A DNA stretch of 63,993 nt, the filler included, from Gonapodya sp. JEL0774 (Eukaryota), in assembly GCA_027604505.1 (NCBI GenBank). It is 3 parts of 3 records of this genome, joined end to end, with 100 filler letters (N's around TTAATTAATTAA, not from the genome) between each part and the next. Parts side by side here need not be neighbours in the genome. Positions count along the whole stretch, not along the records: positions 53,967 to 63,993 come from JADIIX010000396.1; 2 more parts are not named here. The stretch is one strand, 5' to 3'. Position numbers and translations under genes: made by a program. Below the pieces are notes generated by a model. It saw only the letters and a list, made by a program, of their open reading frames with translations, did not search any database and had not been told where the DNA came from. This document shows positions 5,182 through 62,758 of the stretch, one piece after another. Each line of letters begins with the position of its first letter. Position 1 is the first letter of the stretch.

Positions 5182-5493
5182 GGTTGTGGTTTCGTTGGAC
5201 TGTGGTTCTGAGTACGGTTATGTTTGCAGCTCTTGTCTTACAGTTGACGCAATTATTCGCCACCCCTCGTACCGAGCAATGTAAAATGTGACTCTGGCGT
5301 ATATCACTAGCTCAACTCATGTAACTATGAACATTATGGAACCTTGCATAATTGTTGTGTCAACATACGTGGGCCAAATGGTCGGTCTGCCCTTGAGGCC
5401 GAGTCGGAGAGAGATTTTTCAAGCTTAATTTAGCTCGTGTTTATGCCACGTGAGCGGGGTAGCAGTGAGATATGACAAATCGAGATCGATTAA

Positions 5494-5634
5494 ATCTTAC
5501 CGTGACACTTTGTTGCAACTGTAATTCAAACATGCGACTGCTGTCGAGTAATCTACACAGTCAGCGTGAGTTACATGTGTATAGGGCACGCCCTGGACGA
5601 ATGCTGAAAGATGAGCCTGCCTCATGTCTATCTT
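5494..5634 (+). repeat. ~140-bp direct repeat, copy 1 (partner 7679-7820)
   Basis: Shares atctt-ccgtgaca...gagttacatgtgtat...ccctggacgaatgctgaaaga-gagcctgcctcatgtctatctt with 7679-7820. Confidence 0.92.
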
Positions 5635-5764
5635 CAGTGCCGTGTTCAACCTCTCCTAGTGTATCTAAATTATACCCCGAAAACGCGAAAGTAAACGCCA
5701 AAAGTCGCATATTGCTGGTCTTTGAACTAACGTGATCAATCGACCGTTTGAAGCACCGGTTTCA

Positions 5765-7450: not shown

Positions 7451-7678
7451 AATCTCCCGTTTCTCAGAGGAGATATGGATCCGTATGGAGAACAAAAACA
7501 TGGCAATAAAAGTAATCAGTCAGACGCATTACAGTAATCAGAGCCCCAGTGCATCTGGCGGCACCTGCTTCTGCCTGTTGTCTGTTTCTAATTACAAACG
7601 CCAATCCTCTCCACTCAGAATATTGTGCGCTGGTAGAGCGCAAAACATGGTATACGACACATCGAGATTGATATAATC

Positions 7679-7820
7679 ATCTTGCCGTGACAATTTGTTC
7701 CAACTGCAATTCAAACATGGTGACTACTGTCGAATAATTTATGCACTCAGCTTGAGTTACATGTGTATCAAGCATGCCCTGGACGAATGCTGAAAGACGA
7801 GCCTGCCTCATGTCTATCTT
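7679..7820 (+). repeat. ~140-bp direct repeat, copy 2 (partner 5494-5634)
   Basis: See copy 1. Confidence 0.92.
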
Positions 7821-8728
7821 TAGATGTAATCTGACCGCGTCTATCTCCGCAGAGATCATCGAGCCTGGGAACAAGAACAGACAAGCAAGCGGACGACGAC
7901 GATAAGAGTAAATGGTGGAACAAAAAGAAGTGGGAAATTTGTGCGTATCGCGGTGACATTTTATTTGGCGAAGAAGATAGACGAACAAGAACACCATGAA
8001 GGATGAGCCGGACTGAAATGCTCTGACAGGGCCTCCACAAGGAACTCTGGCACGAGTGGATACCACGCACGCGGAGAATTCGGAGCGACGGAAGTGAGTG
8101 AGAAACGCGGACAGGAAAACGACAGAGCAGGAAAAAGAGCGGAGGAATTTACACCAGAGATTCGAGGGAAAATAAGAGGTGGGTAGAACGCGGGGTGGGG
8201 AAAGGGGAAAAGGGGGCCAGTTGGGGAAAGGTGAATGGGCTCTTGGTTGGGAGGAGGCAAGGGGGCCAGCAGAGAGGATTGGTGGCTGAGAATTCTCGCT
8301 ATTGCGACTCGAGGAGGGAAGAGAGAAGCAGAAAAAAGAAGGGGGTTGGAGTTGGGGAGATGTTGTACACGGGTGTGTCCGAGTTCCAGGTGGAGGAGGG
8401 AAGGTGCAGAGGAGAAGAGCGGGAGTCCTTATTGAAATTCTTAACAGGAAAGAGAGAAGAAGAAAAGAAAGACGGGGAGCCGGAATTCGTGAGACGACAA
8501 GTTGGAGTGAGTGGGTGACGGAAGTTGCCGGTGGGACTGGGAGAATTGGCGGAAGATCAAGAGCGGGACAACAGGGAATGCGCACAGACACGCTGCAGCA
8601 GAGCAGACAGGCGCAGTGACTGCGCACGCTCACTCATCTGCCGGTGTCTCCGCCACCACGCAACACCGACTCTCACACACAACACTCCCACACCCAGGAG
8701 CGCGCCAGTGCACTCCACCCCCCTTGCA

Positions 8729-26149: not shown

Positions 26150-26989
26150 CATAGTTTCTCACGCACATCATCCATTTAATATATTCAATTTGTTGCTCTC
26201 TGGAATGCCGACAGTTCTCCGGATGGAGATCCAAAGAGTAGCAATTTTGATTTGTAATTTGTTCAGAGAAATGTGGGCCCGTTCTTCTCATTCAATGCCA
26301 TTCTTGCGGAGCACACGCGGCAGAGAAGAGGCAGACCAGGACGAGGGTAGGAACACAAGACGATGCAACGTTCTTGGTCCGCCCTTACCACAGTGACCGT
26401 AACACCCAAGGAACTCCACCTTTGAAACATAAAATTGACGCCCTGAAGAATTAACAATCTCCTTCAACAAAGGTCTCCTTCGATGATTTCCATTTTCGAA
26501 TCCTGTTCGAACTTGGCCAGGCTCACAGTTTTGAGAGAAGCGAGGTAGAGTTGAGCGATTCGCGCGAGGCTGGGGTTCTTTCCCAAGAACAGTGGGCGAC
26601 TTCCCGTGTGCCTCTCCGCCACCTTTGTCGGCGTTCCCCCGATCACCTTCTGGTCACACACCTTTCCAATCTTCTCCGCAGTTGCTGGCTTCGGGTGTGC
26701 AATGCCATTTGGAGCAGCGATAGTTGTGTGGAATGCTGTAACAGTCGAGGAAATTGCCTCAACAGGGGAAATCGGCTTAATGCGCGGCATAAAGGCAGGT
26801 ACTGAATATTGTCGAGGGGCGATCTGACCCTTCTCGAAGCCCCCACTTCTGCGTCTTCGACACACCTCGGCAATGCGCATTTTCTGTTTGTTTCGAGCCT
26901 CTCGTCGAAGGCTGCTTGCGAGACCCCGCGGAACAGGTGGCACTATCCGTGTCCTGGAGTGATGGAAACGGGGGTTGCGGGGATGGGCA
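26150..26989 (-). repeat. Right copy of terminal inverted repeat (partner 1-817)
   Basis: Reverse complement of 1-817 with substitutions and an in-frame ~24-bp extra segment (IGGTPTKV). Confidence 0.95.
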
Positions 26990-27089
26990 NNNNNNNNNNN
27001 NNNNNNNNNNNNNNNNNNNNNNNNNNNNNNNNNTTAATTAATTAANNNNNNNNNNNNNNNNNNNNNNNNNNNNNNNNNNNNNNNNNNNN
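26990..27089. other. Artificial scaffold-joining linker N44-TTAATTAATTAA-N44
   Basis: Stop codons in all six frames flanked by equal N runs; 100 bp in total. Confidence 0.97.
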
Positions 27090-41100: not shown

Positions 41101-41626
41101 CCTCCTTGCTCAGCCTGGACTCGCTTGACTTTCCTGTTCCTGTGGAGTACTTGCTCGTTCGAGGGATGGCCACGGCAGAGTCGGGATTCGACTTTGCTGG
41201 AGATGCTGCTCGAGAAGAGTACGACCCCGCTGAATTCGACGGCAGACTATACTGGTATGAGGGGTAGGAGGACTGGTACGCTGGATACCCCGCGGGACTG
41301 GATTCCACTGCCCCTGTCTGATACCCAGTCCCGTACCCATTTTCTCGAGATCGCTGAGAGTAAACCTCCATGGCTTTAAGTCTGGAGTACTCCCCAGGAA
41401 AGGCGTCGGTAATTCTATGTCCCCGATCGATTTGGAGCAAAAGTTCTTTTTTTGGGGAGGCGGCAGGACACNNNNNNNNNNNNNNNNNNNNNNNNNNNNN
41501 NNNNNNNNNNNNNNNNNNNNNNNNNNNNNNNNNNNNNNNNNNNNNNNNNNNNNNNNNNNNNNNNNNNNNNNAAAAAATGAAACTCGGCTCGATATGTCTA
41601 GTATAAACACTCCGAGTCAGACCCAC
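38164..41626 (-). CDS. SH3-domain protein with low-complexity regions and a possible PH-like domain; the 5' end runs into an N gap
   Basis: AVTIFAYQAERADELTISDGEIVRVQKTPEGGWWYG ... RRGWFPANHT (SH3 split by an insertion and an intron); ORFs 40409, 39239 and 38164 on the minus strand. Confidence 0.7.
41472..41571. other. Intra-scaffold assembly gap (100 N)
   Basis: Pure N run with no linker motif. Confidence 0.97.
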
Positions 41627-53866: not shown

Positions 53867-53966
53867 NNNNNNNNNNNNNNNNNNNNNNNNNNNNNNNNNN
53901 NNNNNNNNNNTTAATTAATTAANNNNNNNNNNNNNNNNNNNNNNNNNNNNNNNNNNNNNNNNNNNN
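53867..53966. other. Artificial scaffold-joining linker N44-TTAATTAATTAA-N44
   Basis: Same structure as 26990-27089. Confidence 0.97.
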
Positions 53967-54636
53967 TCAACGTCTGATTTTGAGCGACACTGCGCAGGGA
54001 TGGGATTGGGAGCAGTTGGATAGTTGGCGTTGATTGGAAACAATACACTGGAGTGTTTTGTTTCAGGGGGAGTGTGAAGTCTTGGATGATACCATTGGTG
54101 ACACAATAATTTGTGTACACTGGATTTGGACTCCGGAGATGATTTGGGGAAGTGGTTGGATGAGTCATCACTGTGGCCTGGTGTGGCACAGCGGGTCAAA
54201 GTACATATAAACAGCCGATTTTCCCATGTAGTGTGTGTTGTGTGAGAAAAGACAAGTTTGGAGTTCCAACACAGATTGACATACAAGCCTTTTCCCACAA
54301 TCTTTACATTCCTGAGAACAACCAAACTTGACACAGATGAGGACGTCCACTGAACTTGACAGGTTATGAGCCCAGAGCACTGAAGAGTGCTCTATCATAG
54401 GGTTATGGCCCGATCTGGCTGCCTTTCGTCGCACGCTCGTCGCACGTCGCACTTCCCTGAGGAGGAGATGGGATCTACTTCCTCTTTTTTTGAGTATAAG
54501 TTGTACAAATATGAATATGATGGTTGCATCCATAGGTTTCACCATTGATGTTGTGTTGAGCGGAACAACGAAGTTCCACTCCCTCCCTCCCAATCTCTCT
54601 CAATCCCACTCAACACACAATCAATTCGGCGCGTTC

Positions 54637-54672
54637 CGTCGCAAAGCGACAAAAACGGGTCGCTTTGCGACG
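54637..54672. repeat. Perfect 14-bp inverted repeat with an 8-bp asymmetric spacer (loxP/FRT-like geometry)
   Basis: CGTCGCAAAGCGAC-AAAAACGG-GTCGCTTTGCGACG. The repeat is certain; its function is inferred. Confidence 0.9.
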
Positions 54673-54899
54673 AAAGAGAAAGCGGATTTTTGGCAGAGGT
54701 TAGTCGCACGCCTTGTCGACGGAAACCAATTTGCTCGTCATCCCACACATCTCCGACCCTCCAGACCACGAATTTCTCGTGATCGCGTCTACGAGCGGCA
54801 CGTTTCGTGTGCAGCGCTGACCCTCCGTCTCCCTCAATCACGTGTTCGCGACGCATCATTTTGCGAGTCTGACAGCTCGCAAATCGCCAGTCTCACCGC

Positions 54900-55720: not shown

Positions 55721-56071
55721 ACATTTTGTTACAGATCAGGTGTAATCGGAGAAAACATCATGTAGTTAATGTATACAATTAGCAAAGGGAAACTTATGCA
55801 ATCACTAAAAGGAGAATTTAAGAGTGTTCCGAGCATTCAGCATTCGGCCCCAAAAGCAGCGAAATCAAATATCGCGTCAAAGTCCAAATCCACGTCCGTT
55901 CGTTCAAAAGAGCCCCAGAAGGGTGTCAGATCATTAGTCAATCTCGCAGCACAGTTCCCGTTGTCTTTTAGTGTTGTGTCACATACGGTCCCCTGAGTTC
56001 GTACAACAGATTGTGCTCCCGAAACTTTAAGAAAGAGCGCAGATTAATAAAACGACACTCCGAAGCAAACC

Positions 56072-57354
56072 TTAAGCACCTACCCTGGGAGGAATACAGA
56101 AGCTGATGTTGAGATGGCGAAGGAACCTCTGGGTGCTCAGCTTTGATCGAAATTCGTCAAACTTCCTGTTCGAACGCTGCAAACAACACTCACAGCAAGC
56201 AATTGACGCGAGCATCAAACTCCGTTGCACCGTTTCTTTCCTCCACTTGTATCCCTTCCACGAACCCCTGAGATACTGGTCCACACTTTTGCCGGCTGAG
56301 TCCATCTGTGCGACACGGCGGCTTGCCTCAGTTTTGATCGCTTCAGCTTCTTCTGGTTTCAATCGGGGAAGCCACTTCTTTTTCAGTGATGTCACAAAGT
56401 TCTGAATCCGCTCCATTGGACACGCTCCGGTGCGGAAGTTGACATTCAGTCCGTGTTGGTGGAGGAAGTATTCGATCTCAACATTTGTTGGCCCCACACC
56501 CCGCTTCATTGCGACAATTTCCATGAATATTGCCGCTTCCTTCAGTTGATTTTGCTCACGGGGTTCCGGAACTCTGTAGATGGTGGAGTTTGCCGGGACG
56601 ACTGCGCGGAGCTGCTCAGATGTGAAACCGTAGGTCCATTCTCCGTTTAAATCAACCGCTCTCCAAATTTCACCAAGAGGAGCAATCCGTCCCGTGCATT
56701 GTCCCTTCTGGCGCCGGTGGTATAGAGCTGATTTCGTTCGCTCCCTGAGTGCTGATCGTTCTGACTCCGCCTGAATAGTCGCAAAGTGAATCTGAATGGA
56801 ATTGTCGAATCCATTCTTGGTAAGAGGTCCAAATGAGTAGTCAAATTGAGACGAGATGTAAAGGCCTTTGCCAGCGTCTCCCAGTCGAGTTTTCAAAGCA
56901 AAAAAGACGCCGGCATCCCGAGACACCCTGTTCAGACGGTAAACACCCACGCCAATCAGTTGACCAGTTTTTCCGTCCTCGTCCTGCACCATTTGCCGTC
57001 GTTCACGTCGCCCATTCCGATCCTCCCCGCACACAAGCCTCAAGCAGTCTTCAAGTCCAGAACGGTCCGTTTTCCCATATCCAGGTCGAGAGGCGCCACT
57101 CTTGAGGTCTTGATAGAAGGTTGAATAGACACCAAATCCTTTGACTTTGAGCTCGCGCCGAATATGGTCAAACTAGATGGCATGGGACAGTTCGTCGACC
57201 ACGATTGTGCTCAGTATAGAGCAACTCTCCGGTGGTCAAAGGTGGTCAAAGAGAAAACACTGACCTGAACCTCTATGGACACGTTTTCCTTCTTCTCCTG
57301 TGACATGCGGGCGTACATGACGACGATGGGATGGACAGTGGAGAGGGTGTTCAT
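56072..57354 (-). CDS. Serine recombinase (resolvase/invertase-family catalytic domain plus C-terminal extension), ~396 aa, with a spliceosomal intron at 57173-57264
   Basis: Exon 1 (57265-57354) MNTLSTVHPIVVMYARMSQEKKENVSIEVQ; 92-nt GTCAGT...CTAG intron; exon 2 is in frame with ORF 56072..57043: YQDLKSGASR, DRSGLEDCL, VYRLNRVSRD, QAESERSALRERTKSAL, GQCTGRIAPLG. Confidence 0.85.
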
Positions 57355-57856: not shown

Positions 57857-59582
57857 ATGTCGTCCAAGAGATCCGCGCCCACGACACAAAAGATCGCTAA
57901 GAGCAAGCTAGAGAAACGGAAAGCGGCAGTGCTGGATGTCGACAGCGGCGGGAGTGTTCTGGAAGTGGTGGCGAGGATTCCACAGGATCTTGGAATGGTC
58001 GACTTCCGGCGGCAGCAGCTTGGGGCACAGTTTGGATATGACAATCCGAGTCGGATCCTCCCAATGACTCGTACCCTGGAGATGTTGCCGGGGGCCAAAC
58101 GGGTGCTGCCAGACGTGAACAACAAGGAGTTCAAGGATGGAGGAGGAGCACCATTGACCCGGTTCCCCGAATTGCTCGGCATAGGCGAAAACCAGATGTC
58201 GCTTATCTCCAAGCCGGGAGAGTTCAAGTCTCGGGAAGCTCTGGTAACGCTGGCCGACTCGTTGGAGACGCTTTTGCAGGGATCGAGCAACGTTCTCACG
58301 GATTCGGAGGCTGCTCGCCGAGTTATTCAGGATCTCCGGTACGACAATAGACTCAAATCTAAGCGGAAACAAGTGCTCTTATCAATGTTCTCCTTCTTAG
58401 CACCACCATTTCGAAAGGGAATGCGAGCACCGTCGCCCCGAGTCCCCCCACCGACGTTACATCTTCGCATGGTACCCATTTGCGCAGCTTTCTGGCGGAT
58501 TCTCAACATCTGCTGGCAGGTAGCTCCAATGGCCAGCTGGTAGTTCTTTCCCCTCCTACTCCCTCACCAGCACCTCGCTGGGGTAATGCCTGTTCACAGT
58601 ATGATCAATTGGTGCCTCCGATACAAATCCCAATTGAGAGCACCAGAAGCACTAGGCAATCTATGGGGGCAAGCACTTGGAACCTGACGAGCCCATGGGG
58701 CAGTGGAGACTTTCGAGTGGAAGGTGTCGCAATCTGCATACTCCGATGCCAGTCTCCACACCTTCTCCAACGCGGCATCTGCTTTCTTCTTCTTTTAATC
58801 GACCAGTCGACTCCCTGTGCTTTCACCCCCCGTCGTCACCCACTTCCCTGGGTCGCTATCATAGTCGTGGAAACGATGACGTTGACTTGGGATCTCAACT
58901 TCCACGCAGATTTCTCTCCGATGCACAAATACAGCACGGCCATCAAGCTGCTAATCTGCTTCACTCTATTACTTCACCCGATCACACCACTACCTTTGAT
59001 GTCGTCACACTGGCGGACTCTGTAGTATCTTCCCCACCGGTACCACAGTTGCAAGTCAAACCGGTGGCAACAGCCGGCTCCTCTGTTTCAATTGCGGCTA
59101 GAGCGGCACCTGCATCAGCTGGTGCACCCCGATCAGGGACTGAACTGGCGACACCAAAAATAAAGCTATACGTTCGGAAGGCCGACCTGCGCCGAGGGGA
59201 GCAGTACGCAGGTGCTGGTGGCAAGAGCGACTTTGTAACGTGGAAATGGGACGTCCGGAAACTCCAAGCTCAGTGGGAACGGGGTGAAGGGCTGACGGCA
59301 CCGGGTTTTGTGCTCATGTATCCGCCTCGCGTTCTTCATGCTGCACGTCGGGCCCAAAGGTGCAAGGAGCTGGATATTTGTGCGGCTCATGTTGACTACT
59401 TGAAGGAGTTGAACGTTCAATGCACTTCATGGGTCAAGAATCTGACGAAGTACGGGAAGCTGTACGAGGGTCTGAAACTGTGCGGATTTGATACGCTGAT
59501 CTTCCAAGAGAAATTCGGCTCAAAGTTTAATGAAGCCTTGGAGAAGGTGCAGGAGCATTTGGGCAGAATGAACAATCAGTGA
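57857..59582 (+). CDS. Hypothetical protein (probably spliced), basic N-terminus; C-terminus weakly resembles GCR1_C-like DNA-binding domains
   Basis: ORFs 57857..58543 and 58677..59582 in tandem on the + strand; NLS-like KIAKSKLEKRK; WDVRKLQAQWERGEGL...WVKNLTKYGKLY...FQEKFG. Confidence 0.5.
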
Positions 59583-62355: not shown

Positions 62356-62570
62356 GGTGTTGCTTGTCGGCGTTTGCGGTGGAGGGGGCTTGATAGGCGG
62401 AGGCAGCGAGGTAGGAACAGGACGAGCAGAGGAGGGAGCTCGATTTGTCGCAGTTTTACGCATCTGTTGAATTTTCGATGCAATATGTGACGTGCGACGA
62501 ATGCTATTACATACGTGGGGGGATGGGAGGGTGGGGAGTGGCTTTGGTCCTGCCGTGGGACCGTGCAACA

Positions 62571-62618
62571 CTCTCCCTCTCTCCCTCTGTCTCTCTCACA
62601 CCTCTCTCTCTCTCTCTC
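62571..62618 (+). repeat. Imperfect (CT)n microsatellite
   Basis: ctctccctctctccctctgtctctctcacacctctctctctctctctc. Confidence 0.85.
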
Positions 62619-62758
62619 ATCGCACGATCGTCGCACATTCGTCGCATACATACATACTAACAAGGATTTTGGACACTTTTGGACAATCGTGGAATCGCTC
62701 TTCCCCCTCGTATTTCTCCTCTGTCACTGCAACACCATTGAAACAAACGCCTGCCATC

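Follow-up and report, generated by a model that had tools for sequence, protein, structure and literature searches.

A predicted intron-containing serine recombinase in Gonapodya sp. JEL0774 and its small, apparently undescribed non-IS607 subfamily

Gene structure of the recombinase

The window analysed here (the whole stretch of 63,993 nt of Gonapodya sp. JEL0774 DNA) ends in a 10,027-bp contig (window 53967-63993) that carries a serine recombinase gene on the minus strand, a divergent orphan gene, and a multi-exon gene with tyrosine-recombinase-like motifs. Exon 1 of the recombinase gene (57265..57354, minus strand; 90 nt, 30 aa, ATG at 57354) encodes the first strand, Tyr14, Arg16, the nucleophile Ser18 (codon 57303-57301), and Gln30. 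It is identical in the public model P0001, annotated on this contig as 'hypothetical protein HDU93_006587, partial [Gonapodya sp. JEL0774]'. A predicted phase 0 intron (intron 1, 57173..57264, minus strand; 92 nt, GTCAGT...TCTAG) separates it from exon 2 (56194..57172, minus strand), which contains the remaining catalytic part with D52, S55, R67, N111, R112, and R115, followed by helix E (E168, R169, E174, R175), a P-x-G linker (P195, G197), and a C-terminal domain. All seven motifs named in the original prediction are present at the expected places in the spliced product. YARMS (residue 14) and SIEVQ (residue 26) lie in the 90-nt first exon, with the coordinates and residues that had been proposed, and DLKSG (52), DRSGL (66), RLNRVSRD (109), ESERSALRER (166), and GQCTGRIAPLG (187) lie in exon 2.

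An unspliced reading of the gene is blocked. The exon 1 frame stops within intron 1 and the exon 2 frame has two stops there, so that only splicing joins Ser18 to the remaining protein. To place the intron, every GT/GC-AG pair lying 40-200 nt apart here (n=220) was ranked with a profile of ten proteins from outside the subfamily described below, nine of them bacterial and one from a metagenome. An open frame results from 33 of the 220 pairs, and the predicted 92-nt GT-AG intron, whose length is not a multiple of three, ranks first (53.9 bits; next best, 48.3 bits). Its removal leaves no gap relative to the homologues and restores their register, and the Pfam Resolvase score, 31.3 bits for exon 2 alone, reaches 52.3 bits when the public model with its splice is scored. 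P0001 uses the same intron, which constitutes an independent gene prediction rather than RNA evidence; the gene was thus not hidden from annotation.

The 3' end of the gene differs among models. The public model leaves the originally proposed frame at the GTGAGT donor at 56193, removes a predicted second intron (56141..56193, minus strand; 53 nt, GTGAGT...CAAAG), and stops in exon 3 (56084..56140, minus strand), where it is flagged as partial. We predict a third intron (56025..56083, minus strand; 59 nt, GTAGGT...TAAAG) and a fourth exon (55837..56024, minus strand) that encodes an acidic tail and a stop. With introns 2 and 3 removed, this four-exon model reads through 437 aa without meeting an internal stop, ends at 55837, and has 26% D/E over its last 31 aa. 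Similarity of the recombinase to its paralogs stops near residue 343. The gene end first placed at 56072 is doubtful, and of the C-terminal extension of ~200 aa described at the outset, the linker resembling that of large recombinases stands, while the last ~40 aa are probably a read-through of intron 2. No bacterial promoter or terminator was found upstream of the gene, an observation of little weight.

Catalytic domain

The spliced product matches Pfam PF00239 (Resolvase) at the 52.3 bits given above (cut-off 23.3, E 8.5e-14). An AlphaFold model computed from a 12-row alignment (mean pLDDT 75.5, pTM 0.47) places the start of the first catalytic strand at residue 8. In a search of 48,161 chains with this model, 13 reached Z>=8, all of them serine recombinases (Z 9.2-13.9). 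The best match of the predicted structure is Bxb1 (Z 13.9, rmsd 9.2, 244 residues aligned over 9-316), followed by the catalytic domain of TP901-1 (Z 13.6, rmsd 4.2, 129 aligned). A match to the resolvase fold, the check set for the gene beforehand, was therefore found both by Pfam and in the modelled structure.

Six residues are essential to Tn3 resolvase (Y6, R8, S10, D36, R68, and R71), and their counterparts here are Y14, R16, S18, D52, R112, and R115. D52 was placed from its distance to S55 (three positions ahead of it), as its alignment column is unreliable. Other residues tested in Tn3 are also kept in the fungal enzyme (Q30, S55, R67, E168, R169, and R175). By its Resolvase fold and these six essential residues, the gene product belongs to the serine-recombinase superfamily.

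The accessory site Asp67 (Tn3 numbering) is Asn111 in the fungal enzyme. This column holds Asp in 133, Ser in 6, and Asn in none of 139 prokaryote-type rows from outside the family, and Asp in the other five family rows. In Tn3 resolvase, D67N lowers the cleavage rate to 0.018 of that of the parent and abolishes resolution in vivo (PMC2794168, Table 2); the same source describes Asp67 as conserved and classes it as non-catalytic on the grounds of the substantial in vitro activity left in the mutant. By analogy, the fungal recombinase may have reduced activity, perhaps weakened because Asn111 replaces Asp67.

A C-terminal domain common to the subfamily

Residues 198-343 (56234..56671, minus strand) form a subfamily-specific domain, a beta-hairpin followed by helices. 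Beyond the P-x-G linker, five proteins (P0001, P0002, P0005, P0007, and P0008) share homologous sequence. A profile built from the two Gonapodya C-termini detects P0005 (19.4 bits) and P0008 (25.6 bits), with none of 200 shuffles as good in either case, and P0007 at 7.1 bits (1 of 200 shuffles), compared with at most 4.5 bits among 79 bacterial C-termini; the reverse test gave 19.6 bits (again none of 200 shuffles as good) and 17.3 bits.

The nearest bacterial proteins consist of Resolvase plus the first half of PF07508. A profile-profile alignment with them runs from the catalytic domain through this half of PF07508 to about residue 272 (overall probability 99.9), and alignments of the whole predicted structure to the Bxb1 and SPbeta integrases cover residues 6-316. 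When the C-terminal domain is taken alone, 18 to 242 of 300 shuffles score as well against the recombinase domain and the hhalign probability is 0.27. Folded alone, it has a pLDDT of 70.6 and no Foldseek match at E<=0.001, and its best Z, 5.5 among HTH-type folds, is within noise, with large recombinases not listed. A Pfam search of P0001 at E<=10 found neither a zinc ribbon (PF13408) nor a recombinase domain (PF07508), and residues 195-343 have no HTH match in Pfam, Hin-type included. The domain likely binds DNA and is possibly a diverged first half of the 'recombinase' domain of large serine recombinases.

Distribution and phylogeny

A search of 1.84 billion representative proteins returned eight at E<=0.001: four from Gonapodya sp. 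JEL0774 (including the gene itself), one from Obelidium mucronatum, and three from environmental samples. The five proteins that share the C-terminal domain (two from Gonapodya, one from Obelidium, and two environmental) make up the subfamily, and the environmental protein P0006 is a generic bacterial-type enzyme in the trees. Two quick maximum-likelihood trees built on the catalytic domain recover the subfamily as a clade with SH-aLRT support of 96 (tree 1, 6 of 74 rows, no IS607 rows) and 98 (tree 2, 5 of 67 rows, with P0003, P0004, P0009-P0013, and L090 left out and the large recombinases thinned). The 12 cyanobacterial IS607 TnpA rows of tree 2 form their own clade (99), apart from the subfamily. 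Small and mid-size bacterial enzymes are nearest to the subfamily in both trees (sister support 86-90), among bacterial rows that were mostly picked by the subfamily profile or Pfam, come from few phyla, and include no giant-virus sequence. The terminal branch of P0001 is 1.41 long in tree 2. Among 301 and 401 sampled genomes of two phyla, 11 and 2, respectively, gave a match at strict cut-offs, and the 14 best subfamily-profile matches in these 702 genomes all end at profile position 192-216 of 327. A bacterial genome has two tandem mid-size serine recombinase genes beside a tyrosine integrase (G004:C53:57313-60180; L083/L087).

The three Gonapodya paralogs (P0002, P0003, and P0004) are 34-45% identical to the gene and lie on contigs of 9, 37, and 21 kb. 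All three models depart from P0001 at the position of intron 1: P0003 has ~12 extra residues there, P0004 skips ~10, and the similarity of P0002 starts at this point. From these sequences, we infer that intron 1 is old and common to the Gonapodya copies. P0003 is without Arg68 and the helix-E motif and P0004 is without its middle, and both look damaged or mis-modelled. The public model of P0002 fuses a 227-aa N-terminal region to the equivalent of recombinase exon 2, without the exon carrying Y-x-R-x-S, and is probably mis-joined. This N-terminal region, which we took to resemble GCR1_C, has no Pfam support for that assignment.

Searches for further members were negative within their scope. 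Scans of viral contigs gave no subfamily member, only one generic match of 30 aa (L001) and one chance pattern match (L097). Metagenome contigs gave no match for P0001 and one weak generic match for P0007, genome contigs gave no match for P0007, and tblastn of P0001 against phages found nothing. P0008 matches 37 phage and 481 plasmid records in the catalytic region only. A profile search by word index reached saturation and failed to recover three of its own five seed proteins, so the subfamily may be larger.

Surroundings of the gene and candidate element ends

Divergent from the recombinase lies gene X (57857..59582, plus strand), an orphan, probably multi-exon, with a basic N-terminus and no Pfam match. 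Farther on, 2.5 kb upstream of the serine recombinase, the intact ten-exon gene P0015 (59807..62355, minus strand; public model, 622 aa) has nine introns of 59-94 nt and candidate R, K, H-x-x-R, H, and Y motifs. Matched by eye, these fit what we take to be the tyrosine-recombinase order (R-K-H-x-x-R-H/W-Y), with a long acidic insertion before H-x-x-R. The sole library match of P0015 is a PHROG integrase (E=0.28). Against a profile of 24 bacterial rows it scores under 3 bits, with 0 to 2 of 300 shuffles as good. There is no match in Pfam (E<=10, GCR1_C included), NCBIfam, or PDB, and a search for longer proteins found no close relative. The motifs hint weakly that P0015 may be a tyrosine recombinase. 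A further multi-exon gene, divergent from P0015 (62760-63993, plus strand), runs to the contig end; a helical region that by eye looks like the N-terminal part of fungal tyrosine recombinases had made it a candidate for a second tyrosine-recombinase-like gene, which was rejected after tblastn against P0015 gave nothing significant.

Two clusters of (T)CGTCGCA bracket an 8.2-kb block that includes the serine recombinase, gene X, and P0015, and together hold 8 of the 13 CGTCGCA copies in the window. The left cluster (54426..54675) has five copies, spanning 54427-54672, two of them 11 bp apart. The right cluster (62486..62646) has three, spanning 62493-62646, two of them 11 bp apart and oriented as in the left array and one inverted. 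A 7-mer is shared as densely in 6 of 2000 random region pairs, a comparison for which the cluster regions were picked post hoc, and 13 copies across the window are within chance (7 of 100 shuffles). The clusters are suggestive as element ends, for which they are candidates and no more, and may instead be promoter elements. Beside the left array are two adjacent hairpins (54544-54675), one with 20-bp arms and a 42-nt spacer and the other (54634-54675) with 17-bp arms and an 8-nt spacer.

The GC content of the contig is 0.49-0.52, and its tetranucleotide correlation is 0.84-0.91, compared with 0.77-0.91 for other parts of the window. This host-like composition and the introns of the neighbouring gene argue against contamination, in agreement with the original view of an intron-bearing gene in fungal-type DNA. 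To the left of the gap at 53867..53966, 10 of 13 frames match ordinary eukaryotic families (CDC27-like ANAPC3/TPR, DEAD helicase, SMC, ATG9, IML1, and others). This gap, at the left edge of the contig, contains the artificial linker TTAATTAATTAA, so that adjacency to these housekeeping genes is no proof of linkage. The gaps at 26990-27089 and 53867-53966 have the same build (44 N, TTAATTAATTAA, 44 N), and the contigs after both begin with TCAAC; 100 N and nothing else make up the gap at 41472-41571. Elsewhere in the window, the first contig has inverted copies (91% identical) at its two ends (1-817 and 26150-26989), each with an open frame that belongs to no Pfam family, which are either a repeat or an assembly effect. 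A direct repeat of ~170 bp (85% identical) is present at 5470-5637 and 7652-7823.

Comparison with known serine and tyrosine recombinases

The serine recombinases known from fungi are of the IS607 type (PMC2715888, PMC3673617, PMC3627910, PMC6188088), and a 2026 review names IS607EU as the sole known eukaryotic DNA transposon using a serine recombinase (PMC13565253). The IS607-type TnpA proteins of IS607EU and of the Lachancea kluyveri family share with the Gonapodya gene a serine recombinase catalytic domain, a eukaryotic genome, multiple copies, and prokaryotic origin (PMC2715888, PMC3673617, PMC3627910). They differ in having an N-terminal MerR-type HTH and usually an accompanying TnpB/Fanzor2, whereas the fungal protein begins with the catalytic strand and has a C-terminal domain and introns. 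The HTH that precedes the catalytic domain in IS607 TnpA is absent from the predicted gene, with an unseen upstream exon possible, and no IS607 model in NCBIfam matched P0001. Neighbouring frames have no Pfam match to TnpB/Fanzor2, although intron-split genes can escape such scans. The proposal that the protein is not an IS607 TnpA is borne out by the catalytic strand, which starts at residue 8, and by the separate clades in the tree. Within the literature covered, mostly the main text of open-access papers, there is no description of a catalytic-first, intron-bearing subfamily of fungal serine recombinases.

The best matches of the subfamily profile are mid-size bacterial enzymes (Resolvase plus the first half of PF07508, 228-268 aa; L083, L098, L108). 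They likewise begin with the catalytic domain and have a long helix E and a P-x-G linker; the fungal subfamily adds ~20 hairpin residues and further helices, and its C-terminal part alone is unrecognised. Large serine recombinases (Bxb1, SPbeta, phiC31, TP901-1) are the top matches of the modelled structure, but the fungal enzyme is not a full member of this group: it has no Pfam match to the recombinase or zinc ribbon domains and its conserved part ends near residue 343. Small resolvases and invertases (Tn3/gamma-delta, Sin, Gin) share the Tn3-numbered active-site residues (PMC2794168) and reach Z 10-13. These are proteins of ~190 aa with a short C-terminal Hin-type HTH, whereas the fungal enzyme has 375-437 aa, no HTH match, and Asn in the place of Asp67. 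Giant-virus resolvases (Pithovirus, Bodo saltans virus, Edafosvirus, and Yasminevirus; BFVD) resemble it in size, domain order, and a full-length structural match, but are 11-18% identical in a comparison made by structure search only. Like Cryptons, the neighbouring P0015 is a fungal gene that has motifs of the tyrosine-recombinase kind and shows no terminal inverted repeats; it differs in having no match to GCR1_C or a recombinase family in Pfam. Crypton end repeats are 4-6 bp long, and a serine-recombinase passenger is not mentioned in the available text of that source (PMC3212892). Repeats this short cannot be picked at the P0015 locus from one copy.

Possible role and alternative explanations

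We tentatively favor a role for the recombinase in the excision and integration of a eukaryotic mobile element, perhaps at reduced activity. This reading, roughly as likely as not, is drawn from the multiple diverged copies, damaged paralogs, patchy range, and neighbourhood. Several copies that have diverged and lie on different contigs, two of them as damaged-looking models, fit the pattern of mobile DNA; since the paralogs are only 34-45% identical, any mobility is old. Its subfamily is small, non-IS607, and apparently undescribed.

It is rather unlikely, though a serious competitor, that the gene is instead a domesticated or stranded host gene, acquired horizontally long ago and immobile, that acts as a weak recombinase or as a DNA-binding regulator with the acidic tail as activation region. 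Its introns, host-like composition, low paralog identity, Asn111, and acidic tail are consistent with this, and there are precedents in Crypton recombinases that became fungal transcription factors (PMC3212892) and in yeast IS607-type recombinases kept under selection, two of them without the serine (PMC2715888). However, none of the six essential residues has been lost, the eight hits include only two fungal species, and the neighbours are orphan and recombinase-like rather than conserved host genes. It is unlikely that the gene remains from a giant virus endogenised in zoosporic fungi, as a viral resolvase that gained introns after integration. Among viral structures, a Pithovirus resolvase matches best (E 1.2e-9), and of the 27 viral matches with E<=0.001, 8 are named as giant-virus proteins, so that the catalytic-first order emphasised in the original prediction, while true of this gene, is not rare in giant viruses. 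Gonapodya prolifera is reported to carry giant-virus genes (PMC5294986), as are many zoosporic fungi, where some of these genes lie on contigs that are rich in introns and resemble host DNA (PMC13533422, whose main text is silent on Gonapodya, Obelidium, and resolvases), and the two environmental subfamily members are of unknown origin. Yet the identity to giant-virus resolvases is no better than that to phage enzymes, the viral contig scans gave no subfamily member, and Pfam finds no viral marker gene on the contig.

That the gene is a decaying passenger whose frame is open by chance and whose enzyme is already inactive appears quite improbable. Asn111, the long terminal branch of P0001 (1.41), and the loss of catalytic residues or segments from paralog models would fit decay, but at least 356 open codons and the six essential residues persist despite 55-66% divergence from the nearest paralogs, pointing to long selection. 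Bacterial contamination, with the 'intron' a chance break, is largely refuted and very improbable indeed. The contig is tied to housekeeping genes by an artificial linker only, but removal of an exact GT-AG segment restores the register of the homologues, P0015 next door has nine introns in DNA of host-like composition, and the best matches in the 702 genomes of two phyla end at position 192-216 of the 327-position profile.

As an element-borne enzyme, the recombinase would act as expected of its family: two dimers would bind two sites, half of the tetramer would rotate, and the ends would be rejoined with no cofactor. Ser18 of each subunit would cut and become linked to a 5' phosphate, by analogy with the serine linkage of its relatives (PMC2794168). 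In our analysis the C-terminal domain would read the target site, and DNA between two similar sites would be excised or inverted. Phage integrases have a directionality of their own, which the fungal enzyme, having neither zinc ribbon nor coiled coil, would not possess. The ancestor was likely a mid-size (230-270 aa) bacterial serine recombinase, perhaps acquired via a giant virus, and intron 1 would have been gained before the Gonapodya copies diverged. More speculatively, the moved unit would be the 8.2-kb block between the CGTCGCA arrays, tyrosine-recombinase-like gene included. The fullest form of this proposal is improbable as a whole: a new 8.2-kb eukaryotic element of zoosporic fungi that has helically phased CGTCGCA arrays as ends, encodes a spliced non-IS607 serine recombinase and a spliced tyrosine recombinase, and moves via a circle, its serine enzyme being compact, site-specific, and adapted to eukaryotic chromatin.

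Implications

Serine recombinases are core genome-writing tools, and those in use come from bacteria and phages. A spliced, catalytic-first subfamily in two chytrid-grade fungi would represent a second, independent settlement of serine recombinases in eukaryotes. If its members mobilised DNA, they would define a new type of eukaryotic element and provide enzymes shaped in the nucleus; if they have been domesticated, they would be a rare case of host recruitment of the serine-recombinase fold.
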